From: a virus
Lineage: Duplodnaviria; Heunggongvirae; Uroviricota; Caudoviricetes
Virus record (IMG/VR): IMGVR_UViG_2671181040_000015
Strand: one strand, 5' to 3'
DNA length: 13,956 nucleotides
Each line of letters starts with the position of its first letter. The stretch's first letter is position 1. Of the stretch, positions 1 to 13,022 are shown one piece after another. Under the pieces are notes generated by a model. That model worked only from the letters and a program-made list of their open reading frames with translations, made no database searches and was not told the origin of the DNA. Both the position numbers and the translations under genes were made by a program.

Positions 1-570
1 ACAATGCTTAATGCGCTGGCAGGTAAACAACCGCTGGACAATACGCTTACCAATTTGAGTGGAAAGGATGTAGCTGGTCTTCTCGCATACCTTGGTTTGG
101 GAGAAGGCTCTGCATTGCCTGTTGGTGTGCCTGTTCCGTGGCCTTCAGCCACTCCGCCAACAGGCTGGCTGAAATGCAATGGTGCGGCTTTTTCTGCTGA
201 AGAATACCCGGAACTGGCAAAGGCTTACCCGACAAATAAATTGCCTGATTTACGCGGTGAATTTATTCGCGGCTGGGATGACGGGCGCGGGGTTGATGTT
301 GGGCGTGCAATCTTATCATCGCAGGGCGATGCCATCAGAAATATAATTGGCAAGTTTGGTAATACTCAATTGTACCCAAGTATCTATTGTGATGGTGCAT
401 TTGGCGTCACTGTTGAGAATGTGTCACAAACTTTAGGATTAACTCTTGCGCCTTCAGGGGCAGGTAATGGGACTGTAAACTTTAGCTTTGATGCATCTAA
501 AATCGTTCCTGTTGCCACTGAAAACCGGCCGCGCAACGTCGCATTTAACTTCATTGTGAGGGCTGCATAA
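1..570 (+). CDS. Tail-fibre protein, 3' portion (5' partial, continues upstream of the window); 1..105 is the end of the constant shaft (Sc), 106..570 the variable receptor-binding C-terminus (Sv1)
   Basis: The frame is open from base 1 (ORF track 4..570) with stop TAA at 568-570. The C-terminal domain (PVGVPVPWPSATPPTGWLKCNGAAF...RGEFIRGWDDGRGVD) resembles Mu S / P2 H / e14 Stf-type fibre tips. Crossover site A lies inside the coding sequence. Confidence 0.9.
   Translation, partial: TMLNALAGKQPLDNTLTNLSGKDVAGLLAYLGLGEGSALPVGVPVPWPSATPPTGWLKCNGAAFSAEEYPELAKAYPTNKLPDLRGEFIRGWDDGRGVDVGRAILSSQGDAIRNIIGKFGNTQLYPSIYCDGAFGVTVENVSQTLGLTLAPSGAGNGTVNFSFDASKIVPVATENRPRNVAFNFIVRAA
80..105 (+). other. 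Crossover site A (gix/hix/cix-like 26-bp invertase site): TTCTCGCATACC-TT-GGTTTGGGAGAA
   Basis: Two imperfect 12-bp inverted half-sites around a 2-bp TT core. The half-site form TTCTCnnAAACC resembles remembered hixL/gixL half-sites. Sequence identity with copies B and C ends exactly at the inner edge of the site (position 105/106). Confidence 0.75.
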
Positions 571-1172
571 TGGCACAGGCAAAATTAAACAGCGAACTGA
601 TTGCCACGGTAGCGGGTGATGTGACCGTGTTTAACTACGACAGCAAGACGCGGGAATATCTTTCCACATCAACTGAATATCTTGCTGTTGGCGTCGGTAT
701 CCCGGCATGTTCTTGTTTAGATGCACCAGGTATACATAAAGCTGGTTATGCAATCTGCCGTTCAGCAGATTTAAACTCATGGGAGTATGTGCCAGACCAT
801 CGCGGTGAAATCATCTATAACACCGAAACGGGAGACGCCAAAGAAATCACAACTCCGGGTGATTACCCTGAAAATACAACCACTATCGCCCCGTTAACGC
901 CATTCGATAAATGGGATGGTGAGAAATGGGTGACCGATACTGAGGCACAGCATTGCGCCGCAGTAGACGCGGCAGAAGCACAGCGTCAGTCACTGATTGA
1001 TACTGCAATGGCTTCCATCAGTCTGATTCAACTGAAATTGCAGGCCGGGCGGAAGCTGACGCAGGCAGAAACCACCCGACTTAACGCTGTGCTGGATTAC
1101 ATTGACGCGGTGACGGCAACAGATACCAGCACCGCGCCGGATGTCATCTGGCCTGAACTGCCGGAGGCGTAG
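570..1172 (+). CDS. Tail-fibre assembly chaperone Tfa1 (partner of Sv1)
   Basis: 200-aa ORF whose ATG overlaps the fibre stop (TAATG at 568-572). Its C-terminus (LDYIDAVTATDTSTAPDVIWPELPEA) shares the motif seen in the convergent Tfa2 (LDYLDALELVDTSGAPDIEWP), and it sits in the position of Mu U / P2 G. Confidence 0.85.
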   Translation: MAQAKLNSELIATVAGDVTVFNYDSKTREYLSTSTEYLAVGVGIPACSCLDAPGIHKAGYAICRSADLNSWEYVPDHRGEIIYNTETGDAKEITTPGDYPENTTTIAPLTPFDKWDGEKWVTDTEAQHCAAVDAAEAQRQSLIDTAMASISLIQLKLQAGRKLTQAETTRLNAVLDYIDAVTATDTSTAPDVIWPELPEA

Positions 1173-1584
1173 GCCATTCAATATCTGGCGCACCGGAAGT
1201 ATCGACCAGTTCCAGTGCGTCCAGGTAATCCAGCCACAAATTATATTGCGCCAGTTCGTCACCTTTCAGACGACCAATAGCCGCTTTACCAGGCCATTGT
1301 TTACTGTTCATATAATCGTTGGCCTGATTAATCAATTGCTGCTTCTCCAGTTCGGCTGCAGCAATTTGTTCCTCATGTGTTGGTGGTGGAATTTCGGACC
1401 ATGCAGGAAAACCATTTTCTCCAGCGATACGGATTTTTCCTTTCGGCGGTAATCCGGAAAACTCAATATACACTTGCTCATCAACTTCAACAGCATCATC
1501 TGGCCATGAGTCAGCTTGAGTGTAATCCTCTTTCATCTCCAGCGGATAGAAAGAGTTTGTAGTCGCGGAATATATGTAATTCAT
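1144..1584 (-). CDS. Alternative tail-fibre assembly chaperone Tfa2 (partner of Sv2)
   Basis: 146-aa ORF convergent with Tfa1, with 3' ends overlapping by 29 bp (1144-1172). It shares the Tfa-like C-terminal motif and lies 21 bp downstream of Sv2 on the minus strand, with a GGAG Shine-Dalgarno (rc of 1589-1594). Confidence 0.8.
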   Translation of the reverse strand: MNYIYSATTNSFYPLEMKEDYTQADSWPDDAVEVDEQVYIEFSGLPPKGKIRIAGENGFPAWSEIPPPTHEEQIAAAELEKQQLINQANDYMNSKQWPGKAAIGRLKGDELAQYNLWLDYLDALELVDTSGAPDIEWPTPPAVQAR

Positions 1585-1958
1585 TTTTCACTCCATATAG
1601 CTAAATTAACAGCCTAACGCTAAAAATGAAGCGCCGAGGCCAGGAGTACTGGCTCTGGATATAAATTTAACCGGGTCGGGACTAAAACCTGCACAGGCAA
1701 TATAACCAACAGCCCCGCTATCTGGTGTGTAGTCTTGTGAGACCAAAACACGCAGACATCTGTTTGGAAATGCAATCGGGAAATGGGTTACTACATCCTG
1801 TGCAATGCCTGGTGCGCCGATTGAGCCCCACTGAAGAATAAAACCTGATGGTAATTTTTGATATCCAGTACCTGAAACAGAAAGCGTGAAGCTACCCATA
1901 TCAGGTATCTGATTCGCCCCTGTCCCTACATTCCTTTTAGCCGCTTCTCCCAAACCAA
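1408..1958. repeat. Direct repeat copy 1 (551 bp): tfa2 5' end (59 codons), intergenic spacer, Sv2 cassette and inner half of site B
   Basis: Matches 2632..3182 at a constant offset of 1224 bp; spot checks and the identical encoded peptides show no mismatch. Identity ends at 1407/2631 and at 1959/3183. Confidence 0.9.
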
Positions 1959-2808
1959 GGTATGCGAGAAGACCAGCTACATCCTTTCCACTCAAATTGG
2001 TAAGCGTATTGTCCAGCGGTTGTTTACCTGCCAGCGCATTAAGCATTGTCGTGGCAAAGTTCGGATCATTCCCCAGTGCCGCCGCCAGTTCGTTCAGTGT
2101 ATCCAGTGCAGCAGGTGCAGAACCCACCATTCCTGCAATCGCCGATTTCACAAAAGCCGTAGTGGCAATCTGTGTATTGTTGACCGACTGCGCCGCCGTG
2201 GGGGCTGTTGGCGTTCCGGTGAGTGCCGGACTCGACAACGGTGCTTTTAGTGCCAGCGCATTGTTAATGGTGGTACTGAAATTCGGATCATTGTTAATGG
2301 CTGCGGCTATTTCTTTCAGCGTGTCCAGCGTGGCTGGCGCACCATTAATAAGGGCCGTCAGTGCCGCCTGTACAAACGCAGTGGTCGCAACCTGCGTGGT
2401 ATTATTCCCCGCCGCTGGCGTTGGCGCTTTGGGGGTTCCGGTAAATGTCGGGCTGGCTTTTGGCGCGTACTGTGAATGCGGGTCCGGTGCGGCAAGATGT
2501 TTTGCCATCTGATCATCCGCGTACACCTTCAGCTCCAGTGCCTTGTCATCCACATACTTGCGGGTTGCCAGCACTACAGCAGGGTCGATTTTCAGGGTGA
2601 TATTGTCCGTGCTGCTGGTAATCAGCACCAAAAAACCATTTTCTCCAGCGATACGGATTTTTCCTTTCGGCGGTAATCCGGAAAACTCAATATACACTTG
2701 CTCATCAACTTCAACAGCATCATCTGGCCATGAGTCAGCTTGAGTGTAATCCTCTTTCATCTCCAGCGGATAGAAAGAGTTTGTAGTCGCGGAATATATG
2801 TAATTCAT
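1606..2808 (-). CDS. Chimeric 400-aa ORF: Tfa2 N-terminus (59 aa, 2808..2632), inverted tail-fibre shaft segment (about 225 aa, 2631..1971), site B, and Sv2 receptor-binding tip (1944..1606)
   Basis: Continuous ORF in the track. The N-terminal 59 aa are identical to Tfa2. The middle carries fibre-shaft repeats ([10 protein letters not shown]...LDTL.E.AAA...NDPNF). The last 35 codons before site B are identical to window positions 1..105. The C-terminus AAKRNVGTG...LALGC is a distinct fibre tip. Whether it is expressed as such is uncertain. Confidence 0.55.
1945..1970 (-). other. Crossover site B (identical to site A, inverted orientation)
   Basis: The reverse complement of 1945..1970 is TTCTCGCATACC-TT-GGTTTGGGAGAA, with the core at 1957-1958. 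Confidence 0.75.
1945..2049 (-). repeat. Inverted repeat of window positions 1..105 (end of the tail-fibre constant region, including the crossover site); it probably extends further as 2050..2631 pairs with sequence upstream of the window
   Basis: The reverse complement of 1945..2049 equals 1..105 (position p pairs with 2050-p). The identity reaches the window edge, so its true length cannot be determined here. Confidence 0.9.
2034..2495 (-). repeat. Two in-frame tandem repeat units of 231 bp (77 codons) within the inverted fibre-shaft segment
   Basis: The motif GCGCATT..AAATTCGGATCATT recurs at 2034 and 2265. The encoded peptide units are [42 protein letters not shown] and [42 protein letters not shown]. 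Confidence 0.7.
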
Positions 2809-3182
2809 TTTTCACTCCATATAGCTAAATTAACAGCCTAACGCTAAAAATGAAGCGCCGAGGCCAGGAGTACTGGCTCTGGATATAAATTTAACCGGGT
2901 CGGGACTAAAACCTGCACAGGCAATATAACCAACAGCCCCGCTATCTGGTGTGTAGTCTTGTGAGACCAAAACACGCAGACATCTGTTTGGAAATGCAAT
3001 CGGGAAATGGGTTACTACATCCTGTGCAATGCCTGGTGCGCCGATTGAGCCCCACTGAAGAATAAAACCTGATGGTAATTTTTGATATCCAGTACCTGAA
3101 ACAGAAAGCGTGAAGCTACCCATATCAGGTATCTGATTCGCCCCTGTCCCTACATTCCTTTTAGCCGCTTCTCCCAAACCAA
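2632..3182. repeat. Direct repeat copy 2 (551 bp), a duplicate of 1408..1958
   Basis: Constant offset of 1224 bp from copy 1. Contains a second tfa2 start with RBS (ATG rc at 2806-2808) and a second Sv2 cassette ending at site C. Confidence 0.9.
2830..3168 (-). other. Duplicate Sv2 cassette (promoterless fibre-tip segment adjacent to site C); it would become the fibre C-terminus after inversion between sites A and C
   Basis: Encodes AAKRNVGTG...LALGC, identical to the tip encoded at 1944..1606, with stop (rc) at 2830-2832. The ATG of the 130-aa track ORF (3222) lies outside the repeat and is probably fortuitous. Confidence 0.7.
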
Positions 3183-3194
3183 CGTTTATGAAAA
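3169..3194 (-). other. Crossover site C: reverse complement TTTTCATAAACG-TT-GGTTTGGGAGAA
   Basis: The inner half-site and core are identical to A and B. The outer half-site differs (TTTTCATAAACG) but keeps the hix-like form. It lies 55 bp upstream of the invertase start, as gix/cix sites lie beside gin/cin. Confidence 0.7.
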
Positions 3195-3249
3195 TGCAGA
3201 GATAATGGCTAACTGGCATCATCCCCGGTTTTTATTCAGGGGATTGATC
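3195..3249 (+). promoter_or_regulatory. Candidate invertase promoter and RBS region abutting site C
   Basis: GATAAT (3201-3206) is a possible -10 and AGGGGA (3238-3243) a Shine-Dalgarno 6 nt before the ATG. No convincing -35 was found, so the promoter call is weak. Confidence 0.3.
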
Positions 3250-3816
3250 ATGCTTATTGGCTATGTACGCGTGTCAACAAATGACCAGAACACCGATTTG
3301 CAACGTAATGCACTGAACTGCGCGGGATGTGAGCGGATTTTTGAGGATAAAATCAGTGGCACTAAGTCCGACAGACCGGGGCTTAAAAAACTGCTCAGGA
3401 CACTATCGGCAGGAGACACTCTGGTTGTCTGGAAGCTGGACAGACTGGGGCGCAGTATGCGGCATCTTGTTACGCTGATAGAAGAGTTGCGCCAGCGTGG
3501 CGTGAATTTCCGAAGCCTGACTGACAGTATTGATACCAGTACCCCAATGGGCCGTTTCTTTTTTCATGTTATGGGTGCCCTGGCTGAAATGGAACGCGAA
3601 CTGATAGTTGAACGTACCAGGGCAGGGCTGGCTGCAGCTCGTGCCAAAGGCAGAGTAGGTGGACGCCGTCCTAAGTTGACCACCGAACAGTGGGCACAGA
3701 TTGGGCGTTTACTTGAGGCCGGAGAATCAAGACAGCGTATTGCACTGATTTTTGATGTAGGCGTTTCTACTATTTATAGAAAATTTCCGGCAAATAAGAG
3801 CAATGAATCTCCCTGA
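3250..3816 (+). CDS. Serine DNA invertase of the Hin/Gin/Cin/Pin family
   Basis: 188 aa from the ATG at 3250 (the track ORF starts earlier at 3205). N-terminus MLIGYVRVSTNDQNTDLQRNAL carries the catalytic serine motif of resolvase/invertase enzymes, with a C-terminal helix-turn-helix region (GESRQRIALIFDVGVSTIYRK). It lies immediately beside an invertible fibre segment. Confidence 0.9.
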   Translation: MLIGYVRVSTNDQNTDLQRNALNCAGCERIFEDKISGTKSDRPGLKKLLRTLSAGDTLVVWKLDRLGRSMRHLVTLIEELRQRGVNFRSLTDSIDTSTPMGRFFFHVMGALAEMERELIVERTRAGLAAARAKGRVGGRRPKLTTEQWAQIGRLLEAGESRQRIALIFDVGVSTIYRKFPANKSNESP

Positions 3817-6013: not shown

Positions 6014-6147
6014 CGGTTGACGATCTGGTGGCAGATATCGCCACCATTTTTCACTGGCCGCCATCCGTTACTGACGTTATGCCGCTGACCGAAGTGCTGG
6101 AATGGCGGTATAAAGCGATTCAGAGAAGCGGGGCCAACGATGAGTGA
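5711..6147 (+). CDS. E+E' fusion product made by a programmed -1 ribosomal frameshift at 5968-5974
   Basis: The heptamer T_TTT_TTG is in the X_XXY_YYZ register of the E frame. The -1 frame stays open from 5974 to TGA at 6145-6147 and overlaps the T start at 6140, as in P2 E/E'. Confidence 0.65.
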
Positions 6148-9100
6148 TAATAACCTGCGCCTGCAGGTCATTCTTAATGCGGTTGACAAACTCACCCGCC
6201 CATTCCGTGCTGCACAGGCCAGTTCGAAAGAGCTGGCTGGCGCAATCAGAAACTCCCGTGACGCATTAAAGCAACTCAATCAGGCGGGTAACAGCCTGGA
6301 AAAATTTCGCAAGCTGCAGGCCGATAACAAGAAGTTAGGCGACAGGCTGAACTATGCCAGACAGAAGGCTAATTTGCTTAGCTCTGAGCTGGAGGCGATG
6401 GAACAACCATCACAACGGCACCTTGTGGCTTTAGGTCGGCAAACGCTGGCAGTCCAACGCCTGGAAGAACAACAAAAATATTTGCAGAAGCAAACGGCGC
6501 TTGTGCGTGCAGAACTGTACCGGGCGGGAATTTCTGCGAAAGATGATGCGGGAGCAACTGCCCGTTTAGCCCGTGAAACATCACGTTATAACCAGGAATT
6601 GTCGAAACAGGAGGCGCGCCTGAAGCGACTGGGGGAAGCTCAGCGCAGGATGAATGCGGCGCGTGCCAGTTATGCCCGTTCGCTGGAGGTGCGCGATCGT
6701 ATTGCAGGAGCCGGAGCCACCACCACGGCTGCAGGGCTGGCAATGGGTGCGCCAGTGATGGCGGCAGTAAAAAGCTATACCAGCATGGAAGATGCCATGA
6801 AAGGTGTGGCAAAGCAGGTCAATGGTCTGCGTGACGATAATGGCAACCGCACTGCACGTTTTTATGAAATGCAGGATGCCATCAAGGCTGCCAGCGAACA
6901 GTTGCCGATGGAAAACGGTGCGGTGGACTTCGCTGCACTGGTTGAAGGTGGGGCGCGCATGAACGTCGCAAACCCTGACGACAGCTGGGAAGACCAGAAA
7001 CGTGACCTGCTGGCCTTCGCCAGCACGGCAGCAAAGGCGGCAACAGCCTTTGAGTTGCCAGCGGATGAACTGTCAGAAAGTCTGGGGAAAATCGCCCAGC
7101 TCTACAAAATCCCTACCCGCAATATTGAACAGCTCGGCGATGCGCTGAACTATCTGGATGATAACGCCATGTCGAAAGGGGCAGACATCATTGATGTGAT
7201 GCAACGTCTGGGCGGTGTGGCTGACCGTCTGGATTATCGTAAAGCGGCGGCGCTGGGTTCCACCTTCCTGACACTGGGCGCTGCGCCAGAGGTTGCAGCC
7301 AGTGCAGCAAACGCGATGGTGCGTGAATTGTCCATTGCCACCATGCAAAGCAAGAGTTTCTTTGAAGGAATGAATCTGCTGAAACTCAATCCTGAGGTGA
7401 TTGAAAAGCAGATGACGAAGGATGCGATGGGAACCATCCAGCGCGTGCTGGAGAAGGTGAACGCACTGCCGCAGGATAAGCGCCTGTCTGCCATGACCAT
7501 GTTGTTTGGTAAAGAGTTTGGCGATGATGCGGCGAAACTGGCAAACAACTTGCCGGAACTGCAGCGCCAGCTAAAACTGACAGCGGGCAATGATGCGCTC
7601 GGTTCGATGCAGAAAGAATCCGACATTAACAAGGACTCACTTTCTGCGCAGTGGTTGCTGGTTAAAACCGGAGCGCAGAACACCTTCAGCAGCCTGGGCG
7701 AAACGCTGCGCCAGCCGCTGATGGATATTCTGTACACGGTGAAAAGCATCACGGGGGCGTTGCGCCGCTGGGTGGAAGCTAACCCGGAACTGACAGGCAC
7801 ACTGGTGAAAGTAGCGGCTGTTGTGGCTGCGGTTACCGTAGGCCTCGGCACCTTAGCGGTGGCGTTGGCTGCAGTGCTGGGGCCGCTGGCAGTGATCCGT
7901 CTGGGATTCTCTGTGCTGGGTATCAAAACGTTACCTTCCGTTACGGCAGCAGTAACACGAACCAGCAGCGCGTTGTCCTGGCTGGCGCACCACTTGCACT
8001 GCTGCGACGCGGGCTTGCTTCAACGGGCAGCGCAGCGGGTTTACTTACTGCGCCGTTGTCGTCTTTGCGCCGCACGGCATCACTGACGGGAAATGTCCTG
8101 AAAACTGTAGCAGGTGCGCCGGTTGCACTTTTGCGGTCTGGATTATCCGGTTTACGTGCTGTTGCTGTGATGTTTATGAATCCACTGGCAGCACTACGCG
8201 GCGGGCTGACTGCCGCAGGCGCGGTGCTACGAGTACTGGCATCCGGTCCGCTGGTGATGCTGCGCGTTGCCCTGTATGCCGTGTCTGGTCTGTTAGGTGC
8301 TCTGCTCAGTCCGATAGGTCTTGTGGTTACTGCACTGGCGGGTGTGGCGCTGGTTGTCTGGAAATACTGGCAACCCATCACCGCGTTTCTCGGTGGTGTG
8401 GTGGAGGGATTCAAAGCAGCGGCAGGTCCCGTCAGTGCCGCGTTCGAACCACTTAAGCCTGTGTTCCAGTGGATTGGCGATAAAGTGCAGGCGTTGTGGG
8501 GCTGGTTTACTGATCTGCTGACACCCGTTAAGTCGACTTCTGCCGAACTGCAGAGCGCAGCGGAAATGGGGCGACGATTCGGGGAGGCGTTGGCGGAAGG
8601 GCTGAATATGGTTATGCATCCGCTGGACTCCCTCAAATCCGGCGTATCCTGGTTGCTGGAGAAACTCGGCGTTGTCAGTAAAGAGGCCGCAAAGGCGAAA
8701 CTACCGGAAAGTGTGACGCGTCAGCAACCTGGGACGGTGAATACAGACGGTAAAGTGATGATGCCATCGGGTGGTTTTCCGTCATGGGGATATGGCTTTG
8801 CGGGGATGTATGACAGCGGCGGCTATATCCCGCGCGGGCAGTTTGGCATCGTCGGTGAAAACGGGCCGGAAATTGTTAACGGCCCGGCAAATGTGACCAG
8901 CCGGAGAAATACAGCTGCACTGGCTGCCGTTGTTGCCGGAATGATGGGCGTTGCTGCCGCGCCAGCAGAGCTTCCACCGTTGCACCCTTTGGCACTTCCC
9001 GCGAAAGGCGGCGAAGCGATGGTGAGTCGTGCAGCCACTGTGCCGCCCGTTCACCGGATTGAGGCACCGACGCAGATCATCATTCAGACGCAGCCAGGAC

Positions 9101-9213
9101 AAAGTGCGCAGGATATTGCGCGGGAGGTGGCACGCCAGCTTGATGAACGTGAACGCAGGCTGAAGGCAAAAGCCAGGAGTAACTACAGCGATCAGGGGGG
9201 ATACGACGCATGA
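6140..9213 (+). CDS. T: Tail tape measure protein (P2 T homologue), reading frame interrupted: the track shows two overlapping ORFs, 6140..8086 and 8056..9213, that need a -1 shift to join
   Basis: Both ORFs look like tape-measure sequence (coiled-coil and Ala/Leu-rich hydrophobic stretches). The last 30 residues of the first ORF and the first 50 residues of the second frame are low-complexity junk, which places the break roughly between 7950 and 8000. Confidence 0.75.
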
Positions 9214-9695
9214 TGATGGTGCTGGGATTGTACGTGTTTATGCTGCGCACCGTTCCGTATCAGGAACTGCAGTATCAACGCAGCTGGCGACATGCGTCAA
9301 ACAGCCGGGTAAACCGTCGTCCGTCCACGCAGTTTCTGGGACCGGACAACGACATGCTGACGCTTTCCGGTGTTCTTATGCCGGAGATAACAGGCGGCAG
9401 GCTGTCGTTGCTGGCACTGGAGCAGATGGCAGAACAGGGGAAAGCATGGCCCCTGATTGAAGGTAGCGGCACGATTTACGGCATGTTTGTGATTGAGGGA
9501 CTGAATCAGACTAAAACGGAGTTTTTCCGCAACGGTATGCCGCGCAGGATTGAGTTCACCCTGTCGCTAAAACGGGTGGATGAATCCCTGTCCGATATGT
9601 TCGGTGATCTCAGTACTCAACTGAATAATCTGCAGGACACGGCAACGTCTGCCTTAAGCGATATCAGTAAAACGGTGGGAGGGCTGCTGTCGTGA
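9210..9695 (+). CDS. U: Tail protein U (P2 gpU homologue)
   Basis: 161 aa; its ATG overlaps the T stop; size and position match P2 U. Confidence 0.8.
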   Translation: MMMVLGLYVFMLRTVPYQELQYQRSWRHASNSRVNRRPSTQFLGPDNDMLTLSGVLMPEITGGRLSLLALEQMAEQGKAWPLIEGSGTIYGMFVIEGLNQTKTEFFRNGMPRRIEFTLSLKRVDESLSDMFGDLSTQLNNLQDTATSALSDISKTVGGLLS

Positions 9696-10792
9696 ATTTC
9701 AGCTCTGAACTGCTTAACAAAGGCAACAAAACTCCGGCATTCAGCATCAGTATTGAAGGCAGGGATATAACCACTGTGCTGGACAACCGCCTGATGGGGC
9801 TTACGCTGACGGATAACCGGGGCTTTGAAGCGGACCAGCTTGATCTGGAGCTGGACGACGCTGACGGAAAAATCGTGCTGCCGCGCCGTGGTGCAGTCAT
9901 TACGCTGGCGCTGGGCTGGAAGGGGCAGCCGCTTTTCCCGAAAGGGGCATTCACGGTGGACGAGATTGAACACACTGGCGCACCGGACCGCCTGACTATC
10001 CGGGCGCGAAGTGCTGATTTTCGGGAAACCCTGAATACCCGCCGTGAAAAATCGTGGCACAAGACCACAGTTGGGGAAGTGGTGAAGGAAATAGCCGCGC
10101 GGCACAAGCTGAAGATGGCACTGGGTAAAGACCTGTCGGATAAGCCCGTGGAGCATATAGACCAGACTAATGAGAGTGACGGCAGTTTTCTGATGCGGCT
10201 GGCGCGCCAGTACGGTGCTATTGCATCGGTGAAAAATGGCAATCTGTTATTCATCCGGCAGGGTCAGGGTAAAAGCGCCAGCGGTAAACCACTGCCGGTG
10301 ATCACTATCACACGTAAGGACGGCGACAGTCACCGCTTTACCCTGGCAGATCGCGGAGCTTACACGGGCGTAATTGCCAGCTGGTTGCATACCCGCGAAC
10401 CCGCGAAGAAAGAAAGCACTACGGTGAAGCGTAAGCGCAGGACTAAGAAGCAGAAGAAAGAGCCGGAAGCGAAGCAGGGCGATTACCTGGTGGGGACGGA
10501 TGAAAACGTGCTGGTACTTAATCGCACCTATGCTAATCGGAGTAACGCCGAACGGGCAGCGAAAATGCAGTGGGAACGCCTGCAACGCGGCGTTGCGTCA
10601 TTCTCGCTACAACTGGCGGAAGGGCGGGCAGATCTCTACACGGAAATGCCAGTGAAAGTCAGTGGCTTTAAACAGCCGATAGATGATGCGGAATGGAGCA
10701 TTACGACTCTGACGCATACCGTCAGCCCGGATAACGGTTTTACGACCAGTCTGGAGCTTGAAGTGAGGATTGATGATTTCGAAATGGAATGA
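9692..10792 (+). CDS. D: Tail protein D (P2 gpD homologue)
   Basis: 366 aa, GTG start overlapping the U stop, last gene of the tail operon before ogr. Confidence 0.8.
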   Translation: MNFSSELLNKGNKTPAFSISIEGRDITTVLDNRLMGLTLTDNRGFEADQLDLELDDADGKIVLPRRGAVITLALGWKGQPLFPKGAFTVDEIEHTGAPDRLTIRARSADFRETLNTRREKSWHKTTVGEVVKEIAARHKLKMALGKDLSDKPVEHIDQTNESDGSFLMRLARQYGAIASVKNGNLLFIRQGQGKSASGKPLPVITITRKDGDSHRFTLADRGAYTGVIASWLHTREPAKKESTTVKRKRRTKKQKKEPEAKQGDYLVGTDENVLVLNRTYANRSNAERAAKMQWERLQRGVASFSLQLAEGRADLYTEMPVKVSGFKQPIDDAEWSITTLTHTVSPDNGFTTSLELEVRIDDFEME

Positions 10793-10882
10793 TTCTTCGC
10801 AATGGAGAACTTTTAAGTTTGCAAAATGGAATAATGCGGTATCATTATTGTGAATTTAGCAAAAATGGGGAGAACTCGAAAA

Positions 10883-11101
10883 ATGATGATTTGCCCACTG
10901 TGTGGAAGTGCCGCCCATACTCGCAGCAGTTTTCAGGTATCTTCATTGACCAAAGAGCGTTACAACCAGTGCCAGAACATTAACTGCAGCCATACTTTTG
11001 TTACCCATGAAACTTTTGTTCGTTCGATTGCAACGCCAAAAGAGTCAAATCCGGTTCAGCCGCATCCAATGAAATCAGGACAGGTGGCGCTCTCTCTTTG
11101 A
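10883..11101 (+). CDS. ogr: Ogr/Delta-type zinc-finger late transcription activator
   Basis: 72 aa from the ATG at 10883: MMICPLCGSAAHTRSS...CQNINCSHTF has the Cys-X2-Cys...Cys-X4-Cys zinc finger and the Ogr length. The longer track ORF starting at 10850 is not used. Confidence 0.9.
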   Translation: MMICPLCGSAAHTRSSFQVSSLTKERYNQCQNINCSHTFVTHETFVRSIATPKESNPVQPHPMKSGQVALSL

Positions 11102-11181
11102 CGCTGTCGCCATTTTGTCGCCATCGTTAAAAAACAGTGCTTCTAACATCATGATTTTAAACAGCATAAATTTCAGGCAAC

Positions 11182-11224
11182 AAAAAACCCATCAACCTTG
11201 AACCGAAATGGCGGGGTTGATGGG
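11182..11224 (-). terminator. Rho-independent terminator on the minus strand, downstream of ybjL
   Basis: Perfect 10-bp stem (11188-11197 and 11215-11224, CCCATCAACC / GGTTGATGGG) followed on the minus strand by a run of 6 T (complement of A at 11182-11187). Confidence 0.6.
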
Positions 11225-11336
11225 CTCCACAAAATGGGGACATCAAAGAAAAGCAGTGGCACTAATTAAGACTGATGCCCTGCGGAAAAGTTCTGCGGTT
11301 GTGCAAAAAAATTTCATTTTCAGGGCAACTTCAGTT

Positions 11337-13022
11337 TTATCCTAATCCAGGCCATACCATGACGATGATTGTCCCTGCCAGCGTCAGCAGGACGTTGGCG
11401 ATTGCGTAGGTGCCCGCATAGCCCAGCGCAGGGATGTTACTGCGAGCTGTATCACTGATGATCTCCATTGCCGGCGCGCAGGTGCGTGCGCCCATCATTG
11501 CGCCGAACAACAGTGCGCGGTTCATTCGCAATACATAAGCACCGAACAAGAAACAGATAACCACGGGCACAAGACTGACAATTAATCCGGCAATCAACAT
11601 CTGACCGCCAATCGCGCCCAGGCCGTTATTAATACCGCTACCGGCGCTCAGACCAACGCCTGCCATAAACACCATCAAGCCGAACTCTTTCACCATGCTT
11701 AATGCACCTTGCGGAATGTAACCGAAGGTCGGGTGGTTAGCACGCATAAAGCCCAGCATAATTCCGGCGAATAACAACCCGGCAGCGTTCCCCATGCCGA
11801 AACTGAATGTGCTGAACTGGAAGGTGATCATCCCGATCATCAGCCCAATAACAAAGAAGGCGCAAAATGCCAGCAGGTCAGTGACCTGGCTGTGAATCGA
11901 GATAAAGCCGATGCGATCGGCGATGGTTTTTACGCGACGGGCATCACCGCTGACTTGTAAAACGTCACCTTTGTTAAGCACGACGTTGTCATCTATCGGC
12001 ATCTCAATCTGGCTACGAATGACGCGGTTAAGGAAGCAACCGTGATCGGTCAACTTCAGTTGTGCGAGACGTTTACCTACAGCGTTATGGTTTTTAACGA
12101 CCACTTCTTCAGTGACGATACGCATGTCGAGAAGGTCACGATCGAAAACTTCTTTACCGTTACGGAAGCTGGGATCGAGTCGGGCATGGGCGTCGGGATA
12201 GCCTACCAACGCTATTTCATCGCCCATTTGTAGCACGGCATCACCGTCTGGATTTGCAAGAATCCCGTTACGTCGAATACGTTCAATGTAGCAGCCGGTT
12301 TGTCGATAAATACCCAGTTCACGCAGATTTTTGCCGTCGGTCCAGGCCACGAGCTCCGGGCCGACGCGATAGGCGCGGATCACCGGTAAATAAACCTTAC
12401 GGTTGGCATCAGTGTCCAGGCCACGTTCGCGGGCGATTTGCTGGGCGCTGGTCTGTAAGTCCTGATGCTGCAATTTCGGCAAGTAACGCGCACCAACAAT
12501 CAAACTCACCAGACCGATTAAATAGGTTAAGGCATACCCGAGGCTCAGATTATCCAGTGCCAGTGAGAGCTGCCTGCTTTCCATGCCGGAATGACGCAGT
12601 GTATCGCCAGCACCGACCAGAACCGGTGTCGACGTCATAGAGCCTGCTAACATACCGGCCGTCAGGCCAATATCCCAGCCAAACAGCTTACCTAACCCTA
12701 AGGCGATCACCAGCGCACTGCCAACCATCACCAGTGCTAACATTAGGTAATTTTTCCCATCGCGAAAAAAAATGGAAAAAAAGTTCGGTCCGGCTTCGAC
12801 CCCGACGCAGAAAATAAACAGCATAAAGCCAAGATTAAGCGCATCGGTGTTAATGCTGAAATGTTGTTGGCCTAATAACAGCGATACGACTAAAACGCCA
12901 ATGGAATTACCCAGTTGGATCGAACCAAGTCGTAACTTTCCGAGACATAGCCCAAGCGCGAGGACCACAAATAATAACAGAATGTAATTCCCATTTAACA
13001 ATTCGGCGACGTTTATATTCAC
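11337..13022 (-). CDS. ybjL: Putative transporter YbjL (YidE/YbjL family, membrane domains plus RCK_C-type regulatory domains)
   Basis: 561 aa, N-terminus [39 protein letters not shown] start; followed by ybjM and grxA as in the E. coli chromosome. Confidence 0.9.

Follow-up and report, generated by a model that had tools for sequence, protein, structure and literature searches.

The 235 bp spacer between ogr and ybjL (positions 11102–11336 of the 13,956-nucleotide stretch of DNA analysed here, referred to below as the window) is almost certainly the attR site of a P2/186-like prophage (Peduoviridae, Fels-2/Felsduovirus type) that resides in the 3′ end of rybB, a small-RNA gene located between rcdA and ybjL. 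The right part of the window contains, in order, D, ogr, the 235 bp spacer, ybjL, ybjM and grxA. ORF calls agree with a previous sequence-only reading of this DNA on the ends of the two genes that border the spacer (11101 for ogr and 11337 for ybjL). That reading had also placed attR within the spacer, and this is borne out by a break in homology together with a core sequence at 11179–11192. As it had supposed, ogr is the final gene at the right end of the prophage, with an ogr/Delta-like annotation in all matching genomes. The features of the region are the following.

10883–11101, plus strand: ogr, late-gene activator of 72 amino acids (Pfam Ogr_Delta, E = 5e-22), with its TGA stop codon at 11099–11101.
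11102–11178: P arm of attP, the phage-derived half of attR, which starts directly after the ogr stop codon and is missing from prophage-free genomes.
11105–11123, plus strand: two direct TGTCGCCA repeats with an 11 bp period, candidate arm-type Int sites, with a matching pair in the P′ arm.
11144–11156, minus strand: IHF-like candidate site AATCATGATGTTA, one mismatch from WATCAANNNNTTR, between the arm repeats and the core.
11166–11192: extended 27 bp core ATAAATTTCAGGCAACAAAAAACCCAT in its phage allele; attB of K-12 is the same at 23 of the 27 positions.
11179–11192: 14 bp exact common core AACAAAAAACCCAT, the only stretch common to attB, attP, attL and attR.
11179–11226, minus strand: intrinsic terminator of rybB, a 12 bp stem-loop followed by UUUUUUGUU (from the fold and the Rfam structure line).
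11179–11260, minus strand: rybB, intact gene of a sigma-E-dependent, Hfq-binding small RNA (Rfam RF00110; MG1655 annotation).
11267–11293, minus strand: candidate rybB promoter of sigma-E architecture, with GAACTT at 11288–11293, a 16-nucleotide spacer and TCTTA at 11267–11271.
11337–13022, minus strand: ybjL, host gene of the aspartate:alanine antiporter family (561 amino acids; Asp-Al_Ex and TrkA_C domains).

Window positions 10850–11900 were used as a megablast query against 5,426 complete E. coli genomes. The stretch from ogr through the spacer into ybjL is found whole in about 1,115 of these, and in the remaining genomes homology to the window starts only at 11166. The alignment to a prophage-free ybjL region that had been proposed as a check was also carried out: K-12 BW25113 corresponds to the window over 11166–11336 only, and leftwards it continues into rcdA and not into window positions 11102–11165. 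A prophage-free reference with the full 235 bp joined to ybjL was sought and does not occur. Using rcdA–attB–rybB of K-12 as the query in the reciprocal search, a contiguous empty site is present in 4,227 genomes, and in lysogens the match stops exactly at the final base of AACAAAAAACCCAT.

An anchored alignment of attB from K-12, attL and attR from AMSHJX01, HS and SL124 and the window contains a single 14 bp exact core (window 11179–11192) that is common to all sites. To the left of this core the sequence is host-specific at attB and attL and phage-specific at attR, and to its right the converse holds. The DNA is thus of phage origin up to 11178 and purely of host origin from 11193 onwards. 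Exactly one copy of AACAAAAAACCCAT is found in K-12 and one in attP of Klebsiella phage KP12, while SL124, HS and AMSHJX01 have exactly two each, and these flank a complete prophage of about 34 kb (int ... ogr). The direct repeat that had been expected at the other prophage end is therefore found beside the integrase gene in all three genomes. As attL of the source genome lies outside the window, this repeat is seen only in near-identical relatives; SL124 is 99.8% identical to the window overall and fully identical over 9532–11348.

In these relatives attL consists of the 3′ flank of rcdA joined to the core and a phage terminator, and in SL124 and HS the adjoining integrase contains the Pfam domains Int_N and Phage_integrase. 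The left end in the source genome is predicted to read rcdA stop codon, 16 nucleotides, AACAAAAAACCCAT, TTATGTAAA(C/T)GGGTT... and then int. Klebsiella phage KP12 contains a contiguous attP (locus L003, approximately 3200–3410), in which the P arm adjoins the core and the P′ arm without a break, and in Klebsiella phage 4LV2017 attL and attR are annotated on CAGGCAACAAAAAACCCAT. In one genome (NZ_CP173539.1, 2193445–2195127) the ogr–ybjL interval is longer by about 630 bp and contains an annotated hypothetical protein, which points to a secondary insertion at attR or close by.

The host sequence at the junction is the gene for RybB. The RF00110 covariance model aligns over its full length (model positions 1–79 of 79) with the minus strand at 11179–11257, scoring 105.3 bits against a gathering score of 40 (E = 1.4e-22), and no other Rfam family is found in the window. 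The rybB ncRNA annotated in MG1655 (887979–888057) corresponds to window 11182–11260; its neighbours are rcdA (ybjK) and ybjL, and it has the orientation of the latter. rybB is sigma-E-dependent, and the candidate promoter resembles the sigma-E promoter consensus; as read from the sequence, six nucleotides separate its TCTTA element from the +1 G at 11260. At all 19 host-flanked loci retrieved (six genera and further Enterobacteriaceae), rybB sequence stands next to the core.

The sequence-only reading had argued against a tRNA target and for integration either into intergenic DNA or into the 3′ end of the gene upstream of ybjL. Its first point holds, as ARAGORN finds no tRNA or tmRNA genes in the whole window; a tRNA or tmRNA gene as the integration target was rejected on this result and on RybB being the sole Rfam family. 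The target, however, is the small-RNA gene rybB rather than plain intergenic DNA or the end of a protein-coding gene. Nor is rcdA located upstream of ybjL: the two genes are convergent in K-12 BW25113, where the 3′ end of rcdA forms the left flank of the empty site. Integration touches no coding sequence, since the core begins 17 nucleotides past the rcdA stop codon.

One could still suppose that the phage inserted into intergenic DNA without features, or into the 3′ end of a protein-coding gene, and that the hairpin in the spacer is a terminator of ybjL itself or of the phage. The hairpin does have the same orientation as ybjL, and ybjL transcripts may also end there, given that no other terminator is located in the 41 nucleotides between the ybjL stop codon and the rybB promoter. 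Nevertheless, we consider this explanation very improbable, and it is already contradicted by the full-length RybB match of 105 bits, the rybB annotation at the equivalent position of MG1655 and the sigma-E-type promoter that can be read 5′ of the hairpin gene. The body of the hairpin is moreover found in neither attP nor attL, and the core itself only begins beyond the rcdA stop codon.

Insertion into rybB involves the last 11–14 bases of the gene, and the core corresponds to AUGGG of the descending stem followed by UUUUUU and GUU. Because the phage carries an identical copy of the core, RybB is rebuilt intact, in the same way as in integration into tRNA and tmRNA genes. Window 11179–11345 is identical to K-12 at 167 of 167 bases, so the lysogen retains RybB with its promoter, seed, hairpin and U-tail unaltered. 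With rybB rebuilt exactly, this envelope-stress regulator (sigma-E) would be expected from its sequence to be functional in lysogens. The locus is a clean example of a phage that targets the terminator end of the gene for an Hfq-dependent small RNA and restores the gene exactly.

The strong minus-strand terminator noticed previously in the spacer is real. It spans approximately 11179–11226, with stem arms at about 11215–11226 and 11186–11197 and a U-tract after the stem, and its 3′ 14 nucleotides are the att core. The minimum free energy is −24.1 kcal/mol (fold of 11170–11240; z = −2.8), and only two out of 200 shuffled sequences are as stable. A G+C-rich stem-loop followed by a U-tract is what defines a Rho-independent terminator. 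The RybB match in Rfam, the rybB annotation of MG1655 and the sigma-E-type promoter architecture upstream identify the hairpin as the terminator of rybB. A simple terminator and promoter scan of the spacer returned nothing; it missed the hairpin because the loop exceeds the 8-nucleotide limit of the scan, and this null result reflects the loop-length rule and not the absence of a terminator.

Whether this terminator is derived from host or phage had been left open, and the answer differs along its length. The hairpin body (11193–11226) occurs in the host only and is not phage derived, since it is missing from attP and attL, and the final five stem bases with the U-tract (11179–11192) are common to the phage and the host. 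These 14 nucleotides also complete a weaker phage hairpin in attP and attL, AACCCGUUU-ACAU-AAAUGGGUU followed by a U-rich stretch (−9 kcal/mol). This hairpin is located downstream of int, and in attP the core provides its 3′ half and U-tract. As the rybB and phage terminators share one 3′ half, both survive recombination. More remotely, transcription driven by sigma-E might read through the rybB terminator and yield an antisense RNA across ogr.

The att arms resemble those of phage 186. The 20-nucleotide double repeat of the P arm occurs again in the P′ arm of attP (CTGCCGCCAATTTGTCGCCA / CTGCCGCCACTTTGTCGCCA, the P′-arm pair being CTGCCGCCACTTTGTCGCCA), and the repeats of both the P and the P′ arm agree with the 186-type arm consensus tgccGCCActt (PMC3448106). 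The IHF-like site is suggestive by its position only, as the pattern is not enriched in the window (nine occurrences found versus 10.8 expected). The P′ arm (KP12 locus L003 3308–3344, with an equivalent in attL of the lysogens) also contains 18-nucleotide direct repeats, TAATGAAAACAATAAGTT and TAGTAAAAACAATAAGTT, with a 19 bp period. These sit outside the window, between the core and the Int repeats of the P′ arm, and judged by sequence they are candidate excisionase (Apl/Cox-type) or IHF sites.

For the recombination chemistry, the exact cleavage points and the protein binding, we infer a scheme from the P2/186 paradigm. Int would be positioned by the paired TGYCGCCA arm repeats in the P arm (11105–11123) and the P′ arm and would bridge arm and core sites, probably with bending by IHF. 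In attP, the core reproduces the U-tract of the rybB terminator together with the last five bases of its stem and extends about 13 bp further; strand exchange would occur in a 6–8 bp overlap inside the 14 bp identity at 11179–11192. In attR, the P arm of the phage is joined to a rybB gene that is restored in full. Excision would require an Apl/Cox-type factor of the phage. The inverted repeat CATAAAT ... ATTTATG of attP was tried as a pair of core-type Int sites and rejected; its arms are 19 bp apart, and the standard overlap is 6–8 bp.

The functional core may be longer than the 14 bp identity. With modest confidence, we favour a core that comprises the whole stretch of about 27 bp (11166–11192), as in P2, the 14 bp being what remains in a diverged attB allele of this host lineage. 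Left of the 14 bp, phage and K-12 agree at nine of 13 positions. Empty sites of O157:H7 possess the phage-type core exactly, at 27 of 27 bp, with alleles intermediate between this and the K-12 type being frequent in other lineages of E. coli. The rightmost 25 bp are exact at empty sites of E. albertii, E. whittamii, Citrobacter, Enterobacter, Lelliottia and Atlantibacter, with rybB directly next; an exact pattern match was required for this retrieval, which tells us that such sites exist across genera and is not a measure of their conservation. Klebsiella attL and attR likewise share 19–20 bp. A longer core would allow the crossover to fall further left in other hosts. What speaks against it is that in SL124, AMSHJX01 and HS attL retains host-type bases and attR phage-type bases at the mismatched positions, which places the exchange to the right of 11178 and, for the lineage of the window, within 11179–11192. 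A core of about 27 bp is a refinement of the assignment of attR to rybB and not a contradiction of it.

In at least five other genera, empty sites have the 25 bp sequence AAATTTCAGGCAACAAAAAACCCAT directly 3′ of rybB, and the flank on the rcdA side is wholly different each time. The 13 bp just 3′ of rybB (window 11166–11178; K-12 locus L001 2001–2013) are polymorphic among prophage-free E. coli, which may reflect either ordinary drift or traces left by integrating and excising phages. The host flank could be undergoing conversion to the phage allele through successive rounds of integration and excision in which exchange or mismatch repair falls left of the 14 bp identity, although we regard this as rather unlikely. 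If it were the case, site quality would depend on the lineage, and therefore so would the frequency of lysogenisation.

Insertion at rybB has been described before. The "rybB ncRNA" is the insertion site of the P2-like prophages Rybb*W, Rybb*B (carrier of retron-Ec86) and Rybb*Cr of E. coli W, B and Crooks (Archer et al., PMC3032704), and hotspot #29 is occupied only by Felsduovirus phages integrated within rybB (Hochhauser et al., PMC10121019). PhiECO1 of E. coli HS is located at 916812–948276 (Nilsson et al., PMC3448106), and its start is 17 nucleotides after the rcdA stop codon, exactly where the core begins here. The same paper gives 'PhiECO1' in its table as the known integration site matched by PhiECO2 and PhiECO3, and its text counts these prophages with those that have 186-type CI repressors. 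The HS prophage, also named DuoHS, can be induced by the SOS response, and a cured strain with a reconstituted attB can be lysogenised by it again (PMC12055606). Our literature search found no paper that joins ybjL with P2-like phages or attB, and the site is indexed under rybB.

The prophage in the window shares with PhiECO1/DuoHS, the Rybb* prophages and those of hotspot #29 the rybB site, the 14 bp core and the order int ... D–ogr–attR, and its P arm differs from theirs by only a few bases. Cargo and immunity regions vary among the copies at rybB, and the copy in the window has a frameshifted T and a rearranged tail-fibre segment. A similar organization is found in the Klebsiella phages 4LV2017 (Elveevirus, KY271398) and KP12, in which the D–ogr–attP region is 96–97% identical to that of our prophage and the host flank at attR is recognisably rybB. 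They differ in the host genus, in a host core identity of 19–20 bp versus 14 bp and in lacking a small ORF between int and attL. That D–ogr–attP (10400–11200) is 96–97% identical in many Klebsiella pneumoniae phages and prophages indicates recent sharing of this module across genera.

The resemblance to 186 and P2 extends to a tyrosine integrase with an N-terminal arm-binding domain, the ogr–attP–int layout and a core that overlaps a terminator-like hairpin, and with 186 in particular to two direct arm repeats of the type tgccGCCActt on each side of the core. In contrast to 186 (tRNA-Ile gene) and P2 (locI), the target here is a small-RNA gene. Other phages target the 3′ ends of structured RNAs: tRNA genes, ssrA (Fels-2, SopE-phi, CP4-57), cyaR (the P2-like Wphi2 and the K-12 ogr-D′ remnant) and, as a further small-RNA gene, sdsR/ryeA-ryeB in Salmonella (PMC3032704 Table 2, PMC3333887, PMC3448106). 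As in these tRNA, ssrA, cyaR and sdsR integrations, the phage duplicates the 3′ end of the RNA gene, which is restored after insertion. Compared with typical tRNA cores, the duplicated stretch of 11–14 nucleotides (the 3′ half of the terminator and the U-tail) is much shorter.

The finding is an ordinary one, as the rybB insertion site is common and already published, and current understanding is unchanged by it. The arrangement occurs in about one fifth (~20%) of complete E. coli genomes, and the site is known to carry defence-system cargo. Its value is mainly one of annotation: the spacer should carry the labels rybB and attR instead of being treated as a bare junction between genes with an unassigned terminator.

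The prophage itself may be damaged. Compared with SL124, a 4 bp deletion at 7986/7987 in the tape-measure gene T turns the 3,078-nucleotide gene into two overlapping ORFs (6140–8086 and 8056–9213); the prophage may be tail-defective, or the deletion may be a sequencing error. Because of this deletion the prophage is possibly no longer viable, although its att site is intact. The split of T and the rearrangement of the tail-fibre inversion region relative to SL124 would both fit a decaying, non-excisable remnant in which attR no longer works. We think such a fossil junction unlikely, as attR in the window does not differ from SL124 in its arm, core or arm repeats and differs from the functional HS prophage at only four bases. 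In addition, the right-hand 11 kb are 99.8% identical to an apparently complete prophage, and a defective tail would be no bar to excision.

The tail-fibre inversion module occupies window positions 1–3816, with Cin/Gin-type crossover sites at 80–106 and 3168–3194 and an invertase gene at 3205–3816. It contains a perfect inverted copy of the constant region of H (1–106 versus 1944–2049, extending to 2630) and a 554 bp direct duplication (1408–1961 = 2632–3185). Together these create a minus-strand ORF of 400 amino acids (1606–2808) that is lacking in SL124. Either the rearrangement is real, or the assembly has mixed different inversion states. Between int and attL, the E. coli copies of the prophage have an ORF of 89 amino acids (L002 9566–9835; L005 2447–2716; L006 38105–38374) that has no Pfam match, and in Klebsiella KP12 and 4LV2017 int is instead annotated across the P′-arm repeats.
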